11,921 bases of DNA from the IMG/VR virus record IMGVR_UViG_2606217106_000005, positions 1 to 11,921 of that record. One strand, given 5' to 3'. The stretch is from a virus. Its lineage: Duplodnaviria; Heunggongvirae; Uroviricota; Caudoviricetes. This document shows positions 1,575 to 11,621 of this stretch, in pieces; the stretch's first letter is position 1; each line of letters starts with the position of its first letter. The notes beneath the pieces are model-generated. The model made no database searches. It worked only from the letters and a program-made list of their open reading frames with translations, and had not been told where the DNA came from. The position numbers were made by a program, and so were the translations under genes.

Positions 1575-4046
1575 TTAAAAATCAGCCTGACTCGGGATCA
1601 GTTTTTGCCAGATAACTGAAACGTATTTTGCCTGGTAACGGGCGTCATCAAGTGCATTATGGCGCTCACCTTCGAATGGAATAGCCGTTCTGGCATCGAA
1701 GTCTATGGCTTTCCCCAGCTCAACGATTGTGCGTACATCGCGATCGTTGTAGTAACGCCACGGGCAGGGGATCCCCTGCCGTTCGTATGAACGGCGCAAA
1801 ATCGTGTTGTCGAAGTTGGCTCCATTTCCCCAGACCTGAACAAAAAATTCACCGGAGTTTTCGTCGATAAATTCCCGCAATTGTAACAGTGCATCATCTA
1901 ACGGGATTTCATCGGTCATAATGGCAGATTGCGCTTCGCGTGATTGCTTAAGCCACCATTTAATGGTGTCCCGATCAATGACTCCGCCAGCAGTTTCCAG
2001 ATCGATAGTCTTACTAAATTCCGGTCCCATATCTCCGGTTTGCGGATCGAAAAATATTGCACCTATTGAGATGATCGGGGCATCAGGATTTTTTCCCATG
2101 GTTTCAAGGTCGATCATTAGATGGTCACACGTCCTGCTGGTGGATGTGATTTCTTGATGACCGTTCACCTTAATTGAGTGATCTGCCGTCTCGCCAGTTT
2201 CATTATCGCTATCGTGATGCTGATTGCCGCCAGTGTTCTCTTTGTGTGGATGTTCAGCGCCTTCCATTTCCTCCGGATCATCTTCCTGAACTTCAACCTG
2301 ATACTCTTCATCGAATGTTTCCTGGTATGTTGCGTCGCCCATCACCGCGCCACAATCAGGGCAGTTGCCGCCGCCGGTCTGACCGCAGGCGGTGCAGATC
2401 TTTTCCGGTTCCTGTTGCACTACTGGTTCAGGTTGTTTCGTTTCTGGCTCGTTTTGTTGCGTACTTGGGCTGTTTTGTTCCGCTTTCTGGTCGTTCTGTT
2501 CCGTTTCTTGCTGGTTCTGGTTCACAGAATCGCGGGTCTGGATCCCATTAACCCATTTCGGATCATTCGGGTCGCTAATCCCTTCAACAAATTCACCACG
2601 TGATACTGCAAGCAGTTCATCGGCGTCAGGCTGGCTGATATTGGCTGCCTGCATAATTTTGTTTACTTCGTCAGCGGTAACTTTTACTGACCCTGGTTGT
2701 GCGGTCGTGTCAGATGCACCAGTATTTTGTTGTGAACCTGAGTATGTACCGTTTTTGCGGGCGAAATATTCTTCTTTCGTGATTTCAGTAGCCCCAGCAG
2801 ACAGCGCCTTATCCAGACCAGAAAGTTTGTTTGCGCGACCGTATTTTTCGCCATCCTTGTCGGTGAAGAGGAAGTAGAACGGCCCCTCACGTTCTACAGA
2901 TGGTTCGACTTCCACTTTGCATTCGGTTTTTTCGTTGTCTGGAATTGCCGTTTCCACTGCATCAGTTTCTGGTACTGGCGACGAGAGAGTATCAGTTGCG
3001 CTCTGATTTGTTCCTTCATCTTCAAACACGCCCTTTGTAGTCAGGTATTCAGTAATGTATTTGTTCAGTGCCACAGGGTCTTTGTGAATGTCGATCGGAC
3101 GTTCACGGACAAGGCCAAAAATAGTCTGGCGGTCGTAGCGAAGGGCATCAGGCTGTTTGCGCATTGATGCCGAGATACGCTTCCAGTCTTCGCGGTCGTT
3201 GTCGATAACTTCATTTTTTGCCCAGCGATGGATGCTGCCGTCAATGTTTCCGGCATCCACATCACCAGGCCAGAGAGCGTAGGCCAGTTCGTCATCCAGT
3301 GTTTTCCATGTCTGCTTGTATTCGCGATGAATGGCAGCAATGACCGGGCTGATTTTTCCTGTTGAATTTTCAGTGTGCTGTTGATTGGTTCTGGCGCGGG
3401 CGAGATCAACAACAGACGTGTATTTTCCGGTTTCCTTGCGTTCACCTTCGCGACGTTTTTTCCAGATGCGCATCTCTGCCTGAATTTCGGGCCATTTGGC
3501 ACCAGGCTTACATTTATGCTTAACGCACCCGATGGCATGCAGCTTAAGCTCCGGATACATGGCGTTAACTTCTGGCATTTTCATCAACGCTTCAACGATA
3601 TGTCCGTCGAATGTTGCCATGTCTTCCTGCAACAATTCCTGTGCGTTAATAACCATATCAACGGTGATGTTTTCACATGTGTCGAACTTAACCATGAGAG
3701 CGTTCTGTACTTCAGGGGCCAGCTTGTCAAAAGTGACGTTCATCAGATCGGATTCAGTCTCAACCGGGACAAAAGAAGCAGAATCCTCATCCCAGCGGTT
3801 TTCCTGCATATATTCAGCATCCCATGAATCGAGGGCAGGGCGGGGTATGCCAGGTTTATCCTCGCAGATAATAAATTTATAAGCGCAGTCCTGAGCAGCC
3901 GGATAATGTTCCAGGAACTGCCAGTGAAATTTTGCTCGAGCACGGCGTTCGTCGCCAGCTTCAATGGCTGTGGCTACAGCCACAGCGCCTTCTTCCCTTG
4001 TTGCCAGTTCGTCAGGAATGGCGGCGCAAATAAAGACTTTACTCAT
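1575..4046 (-). CDS. Large phage exonuclease with C-terminal DEDDh (DnaQ-like) 3'-5' exonuclease domain, Cys4 zinc ribbon and acidic low-complexity linker
   Basis: 823-aa ORF with GAGG SD. C-terminal motifs MIDLETMG (Exo I, D-x-E), GNGANFDNTIL (Exo II), HNALDDARYQ (Exo III, H...D) are visible. CTACGQTGGGNCPDCG is a C-x2-C-x8-C-x2-C ribbon. Sits where lambdoid phages carry exo/recombination genes; I recall similar proteins annotated exodeoxyribonuclease VIII-like, but cannot verify. Confidence 0.8.
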   Translation of the reverse strand: MSKVFICAAIPDELATREEGAVAVATAIEAGDERRARAKFHWQFLEHYPAAQDCAYKFIICEDKPGIPRPALDSWDAEYMQENRWDEDSASFVPVETESDLMNVTFDKLAPEVQNALMVKFDTCENITVDMVINAQELLQEDMATFDGHIVEALMKMPEVNAMYPELKLHAIGCVKHKCKPGAKWPEIQAEMRIWKKRREGERKETGKYTSVVDLARARTNQQHTENSTGKISPVIAAIHREYKQTWKTLDDELAYALWPGDVDAGNIDGSIHRWAKNEVIDNDREDWKRISASMRKQPDALRYDRQTIFGLVRERPIDIHKDPVALNKYITEYLTTKGVFEDEGTNQSATDTLSSPVPETDAVETAIPDNEKTECKVEVEPSVEREGPFYFLFTDKDGEKYGRANKLSGLDKALSAGATEITKEEYFARKNGTYSGSQQNTGASDTTAQPGSVKVTADEVNKIMQAANISQPDADELLAVSRGEFVEGISDPNDPKWVNGIQTRDSVNQNQQETEQNDQKAEQNSPSTQQNEPETKQPEPVVQQEPEKICTACGQTGGGNCPDCGAVMGDATYQETFDEEYQVEVQEDDPEEMEGAEHPHKENTGGNQHHDSDNETGETADHSIKVNGHQEITSTSRTCDHLMIDLETMGKNPDAPIISIGAIFFDPQTGDMGPEFSKTIDLETAGGVIDRDTIKWWLKQSREAQSAIMTDEIPLDDALLQLREFIDENSGEFFVQVWGNGANFDNTILRRSYERQGIPCPWRYYNDRDVRTIVELGKAIDFDARTAIPFEGERHNALDDARYQAKYVSVIWQKLIPSQADF

Positions 4047-4516: not shown

Positions 4517-5005
4517 TATCGCGCCCTCAACAATGAGTTTTGTGATGCGGTGCCTGGTGCCTCCAGGTGACGTTAACCAGTTAACAATTAACGCCGGATA
4601 CAGAGAATCCAACCATAACACTGTTTTTGGTTTTAACTGTTCCGCGTGCGCTTAGCCGCATTCACCGCATCACAAAATTCACTTTAAAAAGGGCGGCAGA
4701 GCAGTCACGGAGTAAAACTGATACCGCCAAACGTCACCAGAAAATTGATAACAGAGGGCGTTGCAGCGGGGTTGTCACTTAAGCGTATGGTCAACCTGAC
4801 AACCCGGTGTCCTCAACGGGGGAAGGAATACCCCCGCCATACTTACCGCCGCGCCATTTCGCGGATTGCCACAACCAGAAGCGCACGGTCGAAGAAATTT
4901 AACGACAAGACTTATATGCAAAGGGATCTCGCCGTGCGCTTTCGTGTTATGCCCTGACTTTTCAGGGTAAATTAACCTGTGGAAACCTGTTTTTACTGGC
5001 GCTAA

Positions 5006-5476: not shown

Positions 5477-5953
5477 TTAAGTTCCTGTCTTGGTGATGTT
5501 CTGGCTTTTCCGTTTTGATTCTTGATTTTTCAGATAGTTAGCTACCTTCATTTCCATTGCGGCAATGTAGGCGCGAACGTCATGATCAACCCAACTAGGC
5601 TCCGTAGCATTTCCAGATAAGAGGAAAGCCACAATTGCTCTTTTTTCATCAGAGGCGGCTTGATAAAGGCTGTTTATGTCTAAAAGTTCACTTTTTGTAT
5701 CTGAAGTGGATGGGGTTGGTATGGGGTATTCGTTAAGCCCCCAATGCTCTGGACCAACCACATCAGAAAAGAAACGCCATAGTTCTGGAAGTTTGTCTTT
5801 ACTTATCGAACCTTTCTTAATCCAGTCATGGATTGATGGTGGTTGGACTTTGAAATGACGTGCGATTTCCGCCTTTGATTTGACGGCTCCTGATGCAATT
5901 TTTTTGTTGATGGCCTGCTCTATCGCTCGGCCTAAGTCTTTACCACTAAGCAT
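5477..5953 (-). CDS. racR: Prophage repressor, RacR-like HTH protein
   Basis: 158-aa ORF between outward-facing promoters. HTH-like segment SKAEIARHFKVQPPSIHDWIKKGS. Length and N-terminus match my recollection of E. coli Rac prophage RacR; followed divergently by ydaS/ydaT-like genes, as in Rac. Confidence 0.8.
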   Translation of the reverse strand: MLSGKDLGRAIEQAINKKIASGAVKSKAEIARHFKVQPPSIHDWIKKGSISKDKLPELWRFFSDVVGPEHWGLNEYPIPTPSTSDTKSELLDINSLYQAASDEKRAIVAFLLSGNATEPSWVDHDVRAYIAAMEMKVANYLKNQESKRKSQNITKTGT

Positions 5954-6077: not shown

Positions 6078-6401
6078 ATGAAAAAAGATAACTATTCATT
6101 CAAACGAGCTTGTGCTGTTGTCGGTGGGCAATCAGCAATGGCTAGGCTTTTAGGTGTATCTCCTCCAAGCGTAAATCAATGGATCAAAGGTGTACGTCAG
6201 TTGCCTGCTGAGAGATGTCCTGCGATTGAACGAGCAACAAAAGGTGGTGTCCTGTGTGAAGAACTTCGTCCTGATGTTGATTGGACATACTTACGACGCT
6301 CGTCATGTTATTCGCAGAATATGTCGATGAAGCAACCAAATGACGAAAACGATCATACCCGAAGCATCAAGAGGCAAATGATTCATGAAAATCAAACATG
6401 A
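6078..6401 (+). CDS. ydaS: Cro-like HTH protein, YdaS-like
   Basis: ATG at 6078 preceded by GGAG (6066-6069). Motif GGQSAMARLLGVSPPSVNQWIKGVRQLPAERCPAIERAT is typical of YdaS/Cro-like proteins. First gene after P_R. Confidence 0.8.
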   Translation: MKKDNYSFKRACAVVGGQSAMARLLGVSPPSVNQWIKGVRQLPAERCPAIERATKGGVLCEELRPDVDWTYLRRSSCYSQNMSMKQPNDENDHTRSIKRQMIHENQT

Positions 6402-6810
6402 GCACATCCGCATGGCGATGAATGCCTGGGCATATCCTGATGGTGAGAAAGTTCCAGCAGCTGGAATAACCCAGGCTTATTTTGAGTTGGGTATGACGTT
6501 CCCAGAACTGTATGACGACAGCCATCCGGAAGCCCTGGCTCGCAATACCCAGAAAATTTTCCGCTGGGTAGAGAAAGACACCCCTGATGCAGTTGAAAAA
6601 ATTCAGGCGTTGTTACCAGCGATCGAAAAGGCAATGCCACCTTTGCTGGTGGCCAGAATGCGCAGCCACAGTTCAGCTTATTTTCGGGAGCTGGTGGAGA
6701 CGCGGGAACGACTGGTGAGAGACGCTGATGATTTTGTCGCAGTGGCGATCGCTGGTTTCAACCAGATGAATCGTGGTGGCCCTGCAGGAAATATTGTGGC
6801 TGTGCATTGA
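6385..6810 (+). CDS. ydaT: YdaT-like protein, putative toxic partner of YdaS
   Basis: 141-aa ORF overlapping the ydaS stop by 17 bp; GAGG SD; same position and size as Rac prophage ydaT. Confidence 0.7.
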   Translation: MKIKHEHIRMAMNAWAYPDGEKVPAAGITQAYFELGMTFPELYDDSHPEALARNTQKIFRWVEKDTPDAVEKIQALLPAIEKAMPPLLVARMRSHSSAYFRELVETRERLVRDADDFVAVAIAGFNQMNRGGPAGNIVAVH

Positions 6811-6881: not shown

Positions 6882-7952
6882 ATGGCTAACGCCTGGCTCA
6901 GATTATGGCATGACATGCCAAATGACCCTAAGTGGCGAACAATTGCCAGGGTGTCAGGGCAGCCAATTGCAACAGTGATGGCAGTGTATATCCACCTCCT
7001 GGTGAGCGCGTCACGAAATGTCACGCGAGGTCACATTGATGTCACGACAGAAGATTTGGCAAGTGCGCTCGACGTGACAGAAGAGGTAATTGATTCAATT
7101 TTGCAGACGATGCAGGGGCGGGTACTTGATGGTGATTTAATCACTGGATGGGAAAAACGCCAGGTGCTTAAAGAGGACAACGGCAATATTTCGCAAACCG
7201 CAAAATCTCCTGCAGAGCGCAAGAGGGCGCAGCGAGAGAGGGAAAGAAAGCGGGAACAAAATGGCGATTGTCACGGCGCGTCACGAAATGTCACGCACAT
7301 GTCACGACGAGTCACGACAGATAAAGATACAGATAAAGATACAGATCAAGAAGATCAAAACACTATGGTCCATGGCGTAAAAAACGCCACGAACCAGGCA
7401 GGGGATGTTCAGACCGTCAATCTTGGTCAGCCAGCAGGCACGACACCGGAAGCCGATTCAGCGTATGCGCTGAAAGCCGATTCGGGCGCTGTGCAGCAGG
7501 TGATGACCGCAAGGCCGGAGCAATCACACCAACTGCAGCAGCCCGAAGCCGATTCCGCCATTCAGCGGGAAGCCGATCGGGTAGTCCCGGAAAACACCGG
7601 GCAGTCTGTGGGACGAGTGGATTATCCGGATGTGTTCGAACAGGTCTGGCGGGAGTACCCGTTGCGTGCTGGGGCAAACCCGAAGAAATCCGCTTTCAGT
7701 GCCTGGAAGGCCAGATTACGCGAGGGGGTGCCACCAGAGGCCATGCTGGATGGCGTGAGGCGTTACGCAAGATACTTGGCGGCTACCGGGAAAACGGGAA
7801 CGGAATTTGTTCAGCGAGCGACGACGTTTTTTGGACCGGACCGGAATTTTGAAAACCCCTGGTTGCTCCCGGTAAGCGGCACGAACAACCAGCGTTGTGT
7901 TAATCATATTTCTGAACCGGACACCGAAATTCCGCCGGGATTCAGAGGGTAA
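6882..7952 (+). CDS. Phage replication initiation protein (replisome organizer, O-like) containing the putative origin
   Basis: ATG at 6882 with GAGG SD. N-terminus AWLRLWHDMPNDPKWRTIARVSGQPIATVMAVYIHLL resembles phage replisome-organizer N-domains. C-terminal FEQVWREYPLRAGANPKKSAFSAWKAR...WLLP resembles the conserved C-domain of phage replication proteins. Iteron clusters lie inside the gene. Confidence 0.75.
   Translation: MANAWLRLWHDMPNDPKWRTIARVSGQPIATVMAVYIHLLVSASRNVTRGHIDVTTEDLASALDVTEEVIDSILQTMQGRVLDGDLITGWEKRQVLKEDNGNISQTAKSPAERKRAQRERERKREQNGDCHGASRNVTHMSRRVTTDKDTDKDTDQEDQNTMVHGVKNATNQAGDVQTVNLGQPAGTTPEADSAYALKADSGAVQQVMTARPEQSHQLQQPEADSAIQREADRVVPENTGQSVGRVDYPDVFEQVWREYPLRAGANPKKSAFSAWKARLREGVPPEAMLDGVRRYARYLAATGKTGTEFVQRATTFFGPDRNFENPWLLPVSGTNNQRCVNHISEPDTEIPPGFRG
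7006..7050 (+). repeat. Iteron cluster 1: four TCAC(G) repeats at one-helical-turn spacing
   Basis: TCACG at 7011, 7021, 7042 and TCACA at 7031; inverted copy CGTGAC at 7073-7078; a 21-bp block GCGCGTCACGAAATGTCACGC is repeated exactly at 7276-7296. Confidence 0.6.
7271..7342 (+). repeat. Iteron cluster 2 (five TCACG repeats) followed by a 12-bp tandem duplication AGATAAAGATAC x2
   Basis: TCACG at 7271, 7281, 7291, 7302, 7312 (spacing 10-11 bp); tandem 12-mers at 7319-7330 and 7331-7342, then degenerate AGATCAAG copies; A/T-rich flank consistent with a DNA-unwinding element. Confidence 0.6.
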
Positions 7953-7989
7953 CAGATTTCAGGTCATGGGGTAATTTTCAGGAGGGCTT

Positions 7990-8412
7990 GTGGCAAAAGT
8001 TTTTACACAAGAAGAGCGGGAAAAAATTAAAGGGCAGGTTGTTGAACTCGTACGCCAGAGTGGGCGCGAGACGTTACGACAACTGGAAACTAAAACTGGG
8101 GCAACAAGATATCTGATGAGCGTTCTGGCCAGAGAGCTGGTTGCCAGTGGCGATGTATACAATTCTGGCTACGGGTTATTCCCGTCTGAACAGGCTCGTA
8201 AAGACTGGCAAAATGCCCGCAAAAAACTCTCAAGGGCAAAGCTGAAGAAACCATCTGCGGTTGATCCGGACCTTATCTGGTCATTACCAGATGGCGAAAT
8301 ACGCCGCTACGACAGGCGTCTGAACATAATCTGTCTCGAGTGCCGGAAGAGCGAAGTTATGCAGCGCGTACTGGCGTTTTATCAGGGGAATTTTGAGGAG
8401 GTGGTGCGGTGA
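7990..8412 (+). CDS. Hypothetical protein (140 aa), first gene of a translationally coupled trio
   Basis: GTG start with GGAGGG SD (7981-7986); stop overlaps the next start (GTGA). Confidence 0.55.
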   Translation: MAKVFTQEEREKIKGQVVELVRQSGRETLRQLETKTGATRYLMSVLARELVASGDVYNSGYGLFPSEQARKDWQNARKKLSRAKLKKPSAVDPDLIWSLPDGEIRRYDRRLNIICLECRKSEVMQRVLAFYQGNFEEVVR

Positions 8413-8663
8413 GTGAATCAAAATGCCAGGTTAATGGCAACAAGATAGAACCATGTGCAGCACTGGCAAAGTCCCTTGAGCATGATGCTGAATACACGAT
8501 GCGAAAAGGTCTGCTGATATACAAAATCTGGAATGAGAGTTTAACTCGCGGTCCTGATTTTGTGATGTTGCGTTCCGGTGAATTTTCTAAATTACCAGTT
8601 CGGGTTTCATTTTGTCCGTTCTGTGGTGAAAGTCTGAAAACGTGGGAGAACAGAAATGAATGA
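8409..8663 (+). CDS. Hypothetical small Cys4 protein (84 aa), possible zinc ribbon
   Basis: GTG start after GAGGAGG; cysteines in CQVNGNKIEPC and CPFCGES suggest a metal-binding ribbon; overlaps both neighbours. Confidence 0.5.
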   Translation: MSESKCQVNGNKIEPCAALAKSLEHDAEYTMRKGLLIYKIWNESLTRGPDFVMLRSGEFSKLPVRVSFCPFCGESLKTWENRNE

Positions 8664-8967
8664 AATTAAAGAAATACCAGTAGTACGTGATGAATATGGC
8701 TGCTGGACGCATCCTGAATATGAAAAATTCTGTGACGGTCGGGAATATATTTCAACGGAAGAGTTTAACGCCTGGATGGAGGAAAATAATCTTCAATACG
8801 TCCTCTGCTTCAGAGATGAAGGATGTGCTGACCTTGATGCGTGTGATGCTGATATTTCTGCATGGGAACCGGAACGACCAGAGGGCAATGGATGGTTTAT
8901 TGGTTCAATACATGACACCGAAGATGGCCCGGTTTGTGTATGGCTGAGAAATAAGGCCGAAGCATAA
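8656..8967 (+). CDS. Hypothetical acidic Cys-rich protein (103 aa)
   Basis: ATG overlapping the upstream stop (ATGAATGA); GGGAGA SD; six cysteines; no family recognised. Confidence 0.55.
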   Translation: MNEIKEIPVVRDEYGCWTHPEYEKFCDGREYISTEEFNAWMEENNLQYVLCFRDEGCADLDACDADISAWEPERPEGNGWFIGSIHDTEDGPVCVWLRNKAEA

Positions 8968-9272: not shown

Positions 9273-9851
9273 ATGAGAGACATTGATGTAAGAAAGGCTG
9301 TGCATGCCAAGATTCTGAGAGATCATCATAAAGATCCTGACACCCTAATCATTGATGAGTTTACGATGAATCTAGGGGCTAGCAGAGCTGATATAGCAGT
9401 GATCAATGGGCTTATACATGGTTATGAGTTGAAGAGCAAGAGTGATAACTTGCTCAGATTACCAGCGCAGGTGCAACATTACTCATCAGTGATGGATAAA
9501 GTAACTTTGGTTGTCTCTGATTGCCATCTTTATGATGCTTTAAGCATAGTTCCATCATGGTGGGGGATAAAGCAAGTTACGCAAGGTGCACGGCAAGGTA
9601 TCCATTTAAAAACAATTCGAACTAGCAAGTTGAATCCACAAGTGGACAAACTTTCCTTAACAATGCTTCTTTGGAAAGATGAATTGCTTTCCCTATTAAG
9701 TGATGTAGGGGAGCTACAGAATTTGAAAAATAAACCTAAACGCGTCTTATGGTCAAAACTCGCCAATAGTATGGATGTTGGCGAGCTTCGTGAAGCTGTT
9801 CGAGTTAAACTTAAAGCCCGTAAAGAGTGGCGAGTTGCTCAACAACCTTAG
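9273..9851 (+). CDS. PD-(D/E)XK-type nuclease-fold protein (192 aa), sce7726-like by recollection
   Basis: Motif arrangement IIDEF (E29) ... RADIAVING (D40) ... GYELKSK (E52-x-K54) matches the restriction-endonuclease-like core. Putative extended -10 (TGaTATAGA, 9225-9233) upstream. Confidence 0.7.
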   Translation: MRDIDVRKAVHAKILRDHHKDPDTLIIDEFTMNLGASRADIAVINGLIHGYELKSKSDNLLRLPAQVQHYSSVMDKVTLVVSDCHLYDALSIVPSWWGIKQVTQGARQGIHLKTIRTSKLNPQVDKLSLTMLLWKDELLSLLSDVGELQNLKNKPKRVLWSKLANSMDVGELREAVRVKLKARKEWRVAQQP

Positions 9852-10908
9852 TTATGTGATGGTTTTGCCCAATCCTACGCCATACCTCTGGGCTACCAAA
9901 TTTATAGTTACCAGAGGGATTGGCTTTGTAGGCTTGATACTCGTTTGCATAATATTCTATGTCTCTATCTCCCGCACAGAATGTAGGCCCTGAATATTCT
10001 CGATGAGCAAGAATATCCTCACTATGTTTACCATATTGTTCATAACCAAAGCGATTAGCTACTCTTCCTCGAAATACCCAAAAGTCATTATCTCCAGAGT
10101 ATCTGACGCTGGCAGATACGCTAGGGAATCGCGTCGAAAGCCTATTAAAGTCGGGGTGCTGTACTCCATAATCACTATAAATCACATTTCTGGCAAGTTC
10201 TTTTCTATTCATTAAACTCTGCCATAAAATCCACTCGATTCGAGGTTGAGAATATAGACCAACAGAAATATCACTGAGATCTGTAGGAAATGAACCCCCA
10301 GAAAGAATCACTTTTCTGTATTCATTGAGGTGCGCCAGATTGTTTATCAATCCCATTGCCAAAGTATATAGTTCGCCGGAATTAATTTTATCCTCGGTTA
10401 ACTCATCTCTTAAGTCAATAATTATATCAATATTTGATAAAGGAATTCCCAGATGATTAATGTAATGCGTTATTAATTGTGGGTTAACCAGATCTAACGT
10501 GGTTAATCTCAAGCATATTTCATTCTGCATTAATTCATCAATCGCTCTTTTATAGTTAGATGGGCGAGTTGGTGAACTGACAGGAATAACTCTTATCCCC
10601 ATATCTCTAACTTGATTAACCGCATTTATTATAGGGTAATGATCTTCAGGAGAAATAAAATGCTCTTCAATTAATAATCCATCAATATAAACACCTTGCA
10701 TATCTGAGCAAGATTTTGAGACTTTCTTTCCGAACTCTATAAGAGTCTCGTTATAACTCTTTAAGGCAATACCTGAATCAGGGTCAATTGGCACTGGTTC
10801 AATTTCGAGTAATGGCAAAATTTTTGATTTCTTTTCAATGGATAGCTGCGATAAAGCTGATAACTCAGAACGTTTCGCTTTCAGAATAGGAATATATGAA
10901 ATTGTCAT
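9811..10908 (-). CDS. Beta-protein / sce7725-like family protein (365 aa), function unknown
   Basis: Long ORF with AAGG SD 8 nt upstream of ATG. N-terminal MTISYIPILKAKRSELSAL matches my memory of the conserved start of this family. No Walker or other catalytic motifs recognised. 3' end overlaps the convergent 192-aa gene by 41 bp. Confidence 0.7.
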   Translation of the reverse strand: MTISYIPILKAKRSELSALSQLSIEKKSKILPLLEIEPVPIDPDSGIALKSYNETLIEFGKKVSKSCSDMQGVYIDGLLIEEHFISPEDHYPIINAVNQVRDMGIRVIPVSSPTRPSNYKRAIDELMQNEICLRLTTLDLVNPQLITHYINHLGIPLSNIDIIIDLRDELTEDKINSGELYTLAMGLINNLAHLNEYRKVILSGGSFPTDLSDISVGLYSQPRIEWILWQSLMNRKELARNVIYSDYGVQHPDFNRLSTRFPSVSASVRYSGDNDFWVFRGRVANRFGYEQYGKHSEDILAHREYSGPTFCAGDRDIEYYANEYQAYKANPSGNYKFGSPEVWRRIGQNHHITKVVEQLATLYGL

Positions 10909-11339
10909 GTTAATACCTTATACAGAATCAATTAACAATTAATGGTTCTTCGGACATTGAAATTTATATCGCAAAAATTGGCAAACTCTCCTCGACTACT
11001 CACTTGTGGGTATCCTGGCGTAAAAGGAATGACTTGGCAATACCCGGTGTGATCATAAGTCATTGAAAATGATCATTTTTATCAGTCTTTCTTCCATGAT
11101 GAATGCTAATGCCATTTGATTTGTTGAGGTGAAAACTGTTAAAAATCAAAACGATGTAATTGAAATGAACGTTCGGTAGCATTCACGCTTTAAATGTTTC
11201 TTTTGTGCTGATTGGATGAATTTGGGTCACTTCTGATGAGAGATGTTGCAGGAAAAGAAGTTGGCATTGATCTATTGGATAGTTAGAATTACTGCGGGTG
11301 CTTGAGGCTATCTGCCTCAGGCATGAACACCAAAAGGCA

Positions 11340-11420
11340 GATAGAGAAAAGCCCCAGTTAACATTACGCGTCCGGCAAGACGCTTAACATTAATCTGAGG
11401 CCAATTTCATGCTTTGCACA
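11340..11420 (-). ncRNA. Candidate Sok-like antisense RNA of the hok locus (approximate)
   Basis: Inferred only from the canonical hok/sok organisation (antisense RNA opposite the hok mRNA leader/mok start); no clear promoter or terminator could be pinned down by eye. Confidence 0.25.
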
Positions 11421-11465
11421 TGTAGGTTAGCCTCTTACGTGCCGAAAGGCAAGGAGAAGCAGGCT

Positions 11466-11621
11466 ATGAAGCAGCAAAAGGCGATGTTAATCGCCCTGAT
11501 CGTCATCTGTTTAACCGTCATAGTGACGGCACTGGTAACGAGGAAAGACCTCTGCGAGGTACGAATCCGAACCGGCCAGACGGAGGTCGCTGTCTTCACA
11601 GCTTACGAACCTGAGGAGTAA
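11466..11621 (+). CDS. hokD: Hok-family type I toxin (HokD/RelF-like), 51 aa
   Basis: Translation MKQQKAMLIALIVICLTVIVTALVTRKDLCEVRIRTGQTEVAVFTAYEPEE has the Hok signature (single TM helix, LTRK..LCE.R) and matches my recollection of E. coli RelF/HokD. GGAG SD; in-frame upstream ATG at 11409 gives a 70-aa mok-like extension. A 9-bp inverted repeat (11308-11316 / 11336-11344) lies in the leader. Confidence 0.85.
   Translation: MKQQKAMLIALIVICLTVIVTALVTRKDLCEVRIRTGQTEVAVFTAYEPEE

Follow-up and report, generated by a model that had tools for sequence, protein, structure and literature searches.

In phage lambda, the initiator gene O is followed by the loader gene P and by ren, and in the Rac prophage ydaU is followed by the DnaC-like ydaV and by ydaW. 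Both had been correctly chosen as comparators in an initial annotation of the DNA analyzed here. The absence of a loader is also already recorded for lambdoid phages as a class, since phage LLS and 33 others (34 out of 314 lambdoid phages) encode an O homologue only, with a replication described as “not yet understood” (PMC12315714). On the chromosome of Escherichia coli, DnaT is encoded directly upstream of DnaC. An analogy may be drawn to the iteron plasmid initiators pSC101 RepA, R6K pi, and RK2 TrfA, which have no loader of their own and depend on host DnaB-DnaC, such plasmid systems usually making use of DnaA boxes as well. In Alteromonadales, the DopC/DopE system consists of an O-like helix-turn-helix (HTH) protein with a DnaT C-terminal motif beside a loader-type gene (Brezellec et al. 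2017; PMC5509034). Here, we analyzed the left part of a Rac-like lambdoid prophage contained in the IMG/VR record IMGVR_UViG_2606217106_000005 (11,921 nt, in the following termed the window), in which a replication initiator of 356 amino acids (aa) is followed by three small genes (140, 84, and 103 aa). Sequence comparison makes it rather likely that this is a working lambda-O-type module without a phage loader, recruiting host DnaB-DnaC, probably via a DnaT-type C-terminal tail.

The module resembles lambda O-P in an initiator gene with internal iterons and a subsequent A/T-rich stretch, in a product predicted to comprise an N-terminal DNA-binding domain, a flexible linker, and a C-terminal partner-binding part, and in the position of the replication genes between cII-like and Ren-like genes. 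In contrast to lambda, P is missing, neither the N- nor the C-domain shows a sequence relationship to lambda O (no Phg_2220_C match), and the protein ends in IPPGFRG, whereas lambda O ends in ...LDLTNTDWIYGVDL and pairs with P. The racR-ydaS-ydaT immunity context, a DUF977-type gene downstream, and the C-terminal tail (YdaU, RQVNTVSLPDSAIPPGFRG) are shared with Rac; YdaU, however, has an N-domain of the DUF1376 type and the DnaC-like YdaV as its downstream neighbor, while the window initiator has a different N-domain and no DnaC-like neighbor. The O-only phages likewise possess an initiator and no helicase or loader in the genome (PMC12315714). Among them, LLS has an O protein ending in ...IPEGFRG, but built from an HTH_36-type N-domain and a Phg_2220_C C-domain, and its gene is followed by a methyltransferase gene instead of DUF977. 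The dnaT-dnaC order is mirrored by tailed phage initiators encoded upstream of DnaC paralogues; DnaT itself has no origin-binding domain, and the window initiator in turn lacks the DnaT N-terminal domain and three-helix bundle. The likeness to DopC lies at the level of the DnaT_C motif as published (PMC5509034), DopC/DopE being a domesticated chromosomal pair without detectable iterons. The exact module of the window is common and present in a published phage genome, while no connection of the tail type to the loader type and to the loader-less arrangement was found in the literature searched.

The absence of a helicase loader was examined on several levels. No DnaC/IstB, lambda P, DnaB, or other loader or helicase domain was detected in the open reading frames (ORFs) of the window tested against Pfam, PHROGs, and NCBIfam profiles. 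Complementary tblastn searches with six loader/helicase queries (E. coli DnaC, Rac YdaV, a phage DnaC-like protein, DnaB, lambda P, and a P-like protein) yielded no match below E = 0.01 in the window, the whole 46-kb genome of phage Tritos, and L002, a related 21.7-kb prophage segment of E. coli E203449. The same queries gave no match below E = 0.2 in LLS, mEp460, and 50 kb of a prophage of E. coli ST866, which adjoins potC and represents the closest fully annotated prophage with identical gene order. In this same-layout prophage, no loader just outside the region corresponding to the window was found from integrase through capsid genes (31 kb). The window itself is readable for 11.9 kb only, and the genome-wide absence is based on Tritos and the ST866 prophage. 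Furthermore, none of the three small proteins contains a domain of the known loaders (DnaC/DnaI AAA+, lambda P, DnaD-type, DciA) according to sequence searches and, in the case of the 140-aa DUF977 protein, the predicted fold. Profile searches and synteny comparison, both proposed along with the initial annotation, thus substantiated its missing loader gene: neither a loader domain within the small proteins nor a loader in the ST866 prophage or Tritos was found.

Phages with this loader-less arrangement are able to grow. The initiator is 99.2% identical to TRITO_36 of Tritos, and the window shares ~95% DNA identity with this phage from ydaT through the DUF977 gene, the Tritos initiator likewise being followed by a 140-aa ORF. 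Encapsidated Tritos genomes were obtained from strain LF82, and the phage was plaque-purified, with MG1655 as the host on which it was grown for imaging (PMC9928086). LLS and mEp460, which are propagated as phages, encode an initiator without any loader or helicase homologue in their genomes, and both of these plaque-forming phages carry the IPxGFRG tail. Indirectly, the virions and plaques of Tritos, LLS, and mEp460 point to a loader-less module competent for replication. The initial annotation had left the choice between a replication-defective element and reliance on host DnaC, of which the latter fits the evidence much better than the former.

Within E. coli, the same initiator is found with and without a DnaC paralogue. 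In strain 2014C-3011 (locus L005), the gene of an initiator with 354/356 identical residues ends 7 bp ahead of that of a 248-aa IstB/DnaC-type AAA+ protein, with DUF1627 coming next; host DnaC and the phage paralogue share 48% identity. The window and this locus are 99% identical up to position 7950 and divergent beyond, representing a mosaic break at the initiator stop codon. The loader-less form has a spacer of 37-40 nt compared with an insert of 1,560 nt in the relatives. A simple deletion scar was rejected as an explanation of this junction, the short spacer containing no obvious relic of the DnaC-like/DUF1627 segment. Of 5,426 complete E. coli genomes, 1,544 contain the junction of initiator and DUF977, compared with 589 for the junction of initiator and DnaC-like gene, the loader-less junction being 2.6x commoner than the loader-bearing one. 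Congruently, 70 out of 80 IMG/VR loci sharing this initiator C-terminus are loader-less and nine have a DnaC-like gene. The junction queries additionally picked up the tail-coding ~60 nt (7890-7952) at 90-96% identity beside otherwise unrelated initiator genes, which are annotated as “helix-turn-helix domain-containing protein” or “phage O protein family” and have DUF977 or DnaC-like genes downstream. This tail-coding segment seems to be a conserved recombination joint in the prophage mosaic.

The C-terminal tail relates the initiator to the host. The final 19 residues, RCVNHISEPDTEIPPGFRG, correspond to the C-terminus of E. coli DnaT, RDVNTVSEPDSQIPPGFRG (tblastn E = 1e-5), with 16 out of 19 residues identical and the terminal motif SEPDxxIPPGFRG in common. 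The tail has no secondary structure in the AlphaFold2 model. The NCBIfam DnaT model matches the initiator at positions 156-179 only (18 bits compared with a cut-off of 201 bits), and neither the DnaT N-terminal oligomerisation domain nor the acidic PriB-binding linker was recognized by this model. In addition, Pfam revealed no match in the initiator to PF17948, the DnaT three-helix bundle binding single-stranded DNA (ssDNA), which is present in relatives with the same N-domain. The tail behaves as a separable module, as it ends Rac YdaU, SfV/mEp460-type initiators, LLS O, and initiators with a true DnaT bundle, and is joined to at least four unrelated C-domains. Genuine tail matches in GTDB genomes are confined to Enterobacterales, bacteria having DnaT and DnaC.

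At the level of sequence comparison, the tail type tracks the loader type across prophages. Among IMG/VR initiators with enough downstream sequence, 102 end in the IPxGFRG tail, of which 46 are followed by a DnaC-like gene, 56 by no loader, and none by a P-like or DnaB-like gene; the 56 loader-less loci have DUF977, methyltransferases, a RuvC-like gene, and others downstream. After collapsing identical domain/tail combinations, 16 DnaC-like and 19 loader-less types were left (35 in total, covering at least four N-domain classes and several C-domain classes). The tailed initiators of GTDB genomes, all from Enterobacterales, comprise 13 with a DnaC-type gene and 13 without a loader, beside 77 chromosomal dnaT-dnaC pairs. 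In contrast, all 120 sampled initiators with an acidic tail (FEALDC[PT]DWxDD; ...LDC.DW.DD family) are followed by a lambda-P-like gene. The contrast of 120:0 versus 46:56 corresponds to a formal P = 1e-24, a value overstating independence because the loci are related and mosaic. Scans anchored on the loaders mirrored this result, with 78/79 for P-like and 72/73 for DnaC-like genes. Moreover, two natural swaps were identified. Yersinia P0113 combines the N- and C-domains of the window initiator with an acidic tail and has a P-like gene downstream, and LLS O combines a lambda O-type C-domain (Phg_2220_C) with an IPEGFRG tail and has no loader.

Two further observations concern the tails themselves. 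In the acidic-tail/P-like variant (L209 3501-4992; P0100, P0106), the called P-like ORF overlaps the 3' end of the initiator gene by ~90 nt, and database entries with an initiator fused to a P-like protein (PF17948 + PF06992) exist; either frameshifted copies or a genuine overlap between the tail-coding region and the beginning of the loader gene may account for this. The variable position of IPxGFRG is E in 7/56 loader-less IMG/VR loci compared with 0/46 loci having a DnaC-like gene, the latter almost always showing IPPGFRG, as in DnaT. E, A, and Q are over-represented at this position also among the 13 loader-less GTDB initiators, in a set of small numbers and related loci. The variable residue might reflect tuning to host versus phage DnaC.

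According to AlphaFold2, the initiator consists of a helical N-domain, a disordered linker (128-243), a confident helical C-domain (245-333), and the unstructured tail. The N-domain matches phrog_3729, phrog_1408, and phrog_4880 (“replication initiation / replisome organizer”), with TIGR01714 below cut-off. The C-domain matches phrog_1701 and phrog_9327, belongs to no Pfam family, and is common to initiators with other N-domains. A diverged DnaT bundle was considered for the latter and rejected: MAFFT aligned both, but hhalign gave a probability of 1% and Foldseek against PDB returned nothing below E = 1. The initiator gene holds its own putative origin, composed of nine iterons, arranged with helical phasing in two clusters, and a subsequent A/T-rich stretch. 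Ten of the 14 GTCACR sites of the window fall within 7010-7316 (307 bp), and the A/T-rich stretch has a GC content of 0.34-0.38 compared with 0.54-0.64 in the flanking gene parts and an AT skew of +0.45 to +0.48. Both clusters are position-conserved in every gene with this N-domain, including the Yersinia gene and the P-like-linked variant, and are missing from initiator genes with other N-domains. An origin assisted by DnaA boxes was rejected, as a single TTWTNCACA match compared with 1.4 expected represents no enrichment. The iterons translate as repeated N-V-T / R-V-T tripeptides (7010-7046, 7270-7340) and the A/T-rich repeat as DKDTDKDTD. Such iteron-encoded peptide repeats are kept in relatives, e.g., NVTEHNVTVT in P0072, indicating that DNA-level constraints shape the initiator protein in this region.

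Taken together, this suggests how the loader-less module may operate. The N-domain, with which the iterons co-vary, would bind these iterons and open the A/T-rich stretch. The C-terminal module, specifically the IPxGFRG tail, would connect the initiator with a loader of the DnaC family that carries host DnaB, and where the phage DnaC paralogue is missing, host DnaC-DnaB would be recruited directly. A phage-encoded DnaC paralogue would be dispensable because the host supplies DnaC. A P-type loader has no host equivalent, and it was never missing among the acidic-tail initiators sampled. The tail being intact in loader-less lineages of many genera implies a host partner, and its exclusive association with the DnaC family, in combination with the location of dnaT upstream of dnaC, would make DnaC or DnaB-DnaC the likeliest one. 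More specifically, the peptide [S/P]-x-[P/V]-D-x-x-I-P-x-G-F-R-G of DnaT and many enterobacterial phage initiators could serve as a dock for DnaC-family loaders or DnaB-DnaC, a proposal we put forward as tentative.

Several points weigh against recruitment of host DnaB-DnaC through the tail. The E. coli prophages behind the tallies are closely related and mosaic, so that the counts lack independence, and the search pattern for acidic tails was narrow. The Tritos plaque was obtained once only (PMC9928086). Complementation or recombination is possible for Tritos as well, since K-12 hosts carry Rac ydaV, and the prophage of the window could be defective for other reasons. Regarding the tail itself, it is reported to improve ssDNA binding and cooperativity of DnaT, both of which are lowered by removal of residues 154-179 (PMC4132743), so that it could act on DNA and not on a loader. 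Finally, the N-terminal domain of DnaT and not its tail was tentatively proposed to recruit DnaB/DnaC in the latest structural work, by a mechanism called unknown (PMC13377028), and no report of a binding partner for the DnaT tail was found in the literature searched.

Four alternative explanations have to be weighed. The tail could be a DnaT mimic plugging the initiator into the PriA-PriB restart primosome, with the host restart pathway loading the helicase. DnaT indeed ends in such a tail, and its C-terminal domain docks on PriA and assembles into filaments on ssDNA; moreover, some initiators combine a true DnaT bundle (PF17948) with an IPPGFRG tail and have no loader. However, the window initiator possesses neither this bundle nor the acidic PriB-binding linker, and entry into the restart pathway does not alone explain why IPxGFRG pairs with phage DnaC paralogues and never with P-like loaders, rendering this explanation unlikely. 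Likewise improbable is that the folded C-domain recruits host DnaB (with DnaC) in the manner of plasmid Rep proteins, leaving ssDNA binding, oligomerisation, or stability to the tail. It would be consistent with the lower ssDNA affinity and cooperativity of DnaT lacking residues 154-179 (PMC4132743) and with a C-domain that is confidently folded, widely conserved, and present in Burkholderia and Vibrio phage initiators without the tail. Yet in the comparison of P0113 with the window initiator, which share this C-domain, the loader type goes with the tail, and the tail is attached to at least four unrelated C-domains.

Far less probable is a loader supplied in trans by the DnaC-like gene of another prophage (e.g., Rac ydaV), by which the module would not be autonomous. 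DnaC-like genes stand beside such initiators in at least 589 genomes, and the K-12 hosts of Tritos, LLS, and mEp460 carry ydaV, but early genes of resident prophages are normally repressed, and loader-less tailed initiators occur in many Enterobacterales genera, as seen in single representative genomes. A replication-defective remnant of a rep-dnaC-DUF1627-DUF977 operon after a 1.5-kb loss is hardly to be expected either, since, even though there are rep-DnaC-like-DUF1627-DUF977 loci, from which the loader-less form is distinguished by a 1,560-nt segment, this form is carried by functional phages and is 2.6x commoner than the loader-bearing one, with initiator ORF, iterons, and tail all intact.

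The three small coupled genes noted initially, two of them Cys-rich, were confirmed: the overlaps GTGA at 8409-8412 and ATGAATGA at 8656-8663 are present, and the 140-, 84-, and 103-aa proteins contain 2, 4, and 6 Cys, the Cys-rich ones being those of 84 and 103 aa. The 140-aa protein scores 103.5 bits against PF06163 (gathering cut-off 22.1 bits), has a C-terminal motif in common with lambda Ren, and is encoded at the position of lambda ren and Rac ydaW. Its predicted structure shows a confident N-terminal winged helix with MarR/GntR-type regulators as weak best Foldseek matches, the model resting on a shallow alignment because all homologues retrieved were at least 88% identical. In loader-bearing relatives, DUF977 comes after the loader and the DUF1627 gene; it therefore accompanies loaders and does not replace them. 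A hidden loader of known type was accordingly rejected for DUF977 on the basis of this co-occurrence with DnaC-like and DUF1627 genes and of the winged-helix fold, the gene also being missing from the loader-less LLS and mEp460 modules. The DUF1627 protein itself (N-terminal winged HTH-like; L005 4828-5544, L209 5026-5742) follows both DnaC-like and P-like loaders and is gone together with the loader in the loader-less arrangement.

The 84-aa protein had no match in Pfam, NCBIfam, PADLOC, or PDB, and the 103-aa protein none in Pfam, NCBIfam, PADLOC, and PDB sequence searches apart from phrog_1372. The gene set is variable. The complete DUF977+84+103 combination was found in 1/80 IMG/VR loci sharing the initiator C-terminus, the 84-aa gene is missing from Tritos and most relatives, Tritos has DUF977 only after the initiator, the 103-aa gene is also present where DUF977 and the 84-aa gene are missing (e.g., L005), and other relatives have DUF4406, DUF4752, or Ea22-like genes at this position. 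Judged from gene content, the 84- and 103-aa genes are interchangeable cargo, and all three downstream genes lie outside the loading machinery. This agrees with the earlier suggestion of nin-like accessory factors or cargo, DUF977 being Ren-like at the ren position. A fixed stoichiometry, which had been deduced from the tight coupling, is not supported in view of this variability; the start/stop overlaps are ordinary translational coupling in a phage early operon and no sign of a stoichiometric complex with the initiator.

The coordinates of the replication region are summarized in the table.

Features of the replication region and its upstream regulators (positions refer to the window).
Feature	Position	Strand	Evidence and remarks
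racR-type prophage repressor	5477..5953	-	NCBIfam TransRepsrRacR E = 8.8e-74, exceeds curated cut-off; immunity region upstream of replication operon
ydaS/cro-like HTH regulator	6078..6401	+	Pfam YdaS_toxin E = 4.6e-30, P22_Cro; opens rightward operon
ydaT/cII-like gene	6385..6810	+	Pfam YdaT_toxin E = 7.5e-10; phrog_163 “CII-like transcriptional activator” E = 9.5e-45
Replication initiator (“phage replisome organizer”, 356 aa)	6882..7952	+	phrog_3729 “replication initiation protein” E = 6.8e-258
Iteron cluster 1	7010..7046	+	four GTCAC[G/A] at 10/10/11-bp spacing; plus inverted copy 7073-7078
Iteron cluster 2	7270..7316	+	five GTCACG at 10/10/11/10-bp spacing
A/T-rich, A-skewed stretch, candidate DNA-unwinding element	7317..7374	+	tandem repeat ACAGATAAAGAT x2
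C-domain, residues 245-333	7614..7880	+	helical bundle, predicted local distance difference test (pLDDT) 80-94, helices 250-258, 268-281, 285-302
C-terminal tail GTNNQRCVNHISEPDTEIPPGFRG	7884..7949	+	NCBIfam DnaT positions 156-179; PDB DnaT chains 6aep, 2ru8, 9zbt
Intergenic spacer and mosaic junction	7953..7989	.	relatives have DnaC-like gene and DUF1627 at same place
DUF977/Ren-like winged-helix protein, 140 aa	7990..8412	+	Pfam PF06163 E = 1.2e-29; phrog_142 “Ren-like exclusion protein” E = 3.8e-47
84-aa protein	8409..8663	+	phrog_4030 (unknown function); 4 Cys (Cx9C ... CxxC); variable cargo
103-aa protein	8656..8967	+	phrog_1372 (unknown function); 6 Cys; variable cargo

The initiator ORF spans 6876/6882-7952, and ATG 6882, located after an AAGAGG ribosome-binding site, results in 356 aa, matching the NCBI annotation of relatives. 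Coordinates of the ydaS/cro-like gene were taken from the NCBI annotation of the 99% identical locus L005. The leftward genes of the window comprise the integrase (157-1275), an excisionase, an 823-aa exonuclease, the DicF RNA, and the RacR-type repressor. In rightward orientation, the ydaS/cro-like and ydaT/cII-like genes, the initiator, and the three small genes are followed by a sce7726/Beta-protein pair and hok/sok. The DicF antisense RNA (4691-4742, minus strand, 76.7 bits) and the hok/sok module (11296-11621, plus strand; sok 119.8 bits, Hok ORF within 11409-11621) are arranged as in Qin/Rac-type prophages and Tritos. In the 823-aa “exonuclease” (1575-4046, minus strand), an Rv2179c-like 3'-5' exoribonuclease fold at the C-terminus (residues 642-813) is the sole domain assigned with confidence; the region ahead of it is long, acidic, and of low complexity, and contains a CxxC...CxxC motif. 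Tritos, sharing this gene, is listed as a recombination-module type with a nuclease and without an annealing protein (PMC12315714). Between the nin-like genes and hok, at a moron position, a convergent overlapping gene pair covers both strands of 9273-10908. It encodes a sce7726-family protein (NCBIfam E = 1.7e-56; PADLOC “cll”) and a 365-aa member of the Beta-protein family with a PADLOC PD-Lambda-2_C match (E = 1.8e-41), and is probably a prophage-borne anti-phage defence pair.

In respect to the biology of these elements, ~28% of complete E. coli genomes have the loader-less junction, so that gene content alone gives no ground for scoring such prophages as replication-defective. The comparative pattern joins two open questions, namely helicase loading in O-only phages (PMC12315714) and the recruitment of DnaB-DnaC by the preprimosome (PMC13377028), in one testable hypothesis of a ~12-residue peptide as the loader-coupling element. 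If the peptide is indeed a dock, loader-less lambdoid phages would hijack host helicase loading by mimicking the DnaT tail, while acidic/aromatic ...LDxxxDW tails would specify lambda-P-type loaders. On the host side, the DnaT tail and not its N-terminal domain would then link the PriA-PriB-DnaT preprimosome to DnaB-DnaC, and the dnaT-dnaC operon would resemble a domesticated phage initiator-loader pair.

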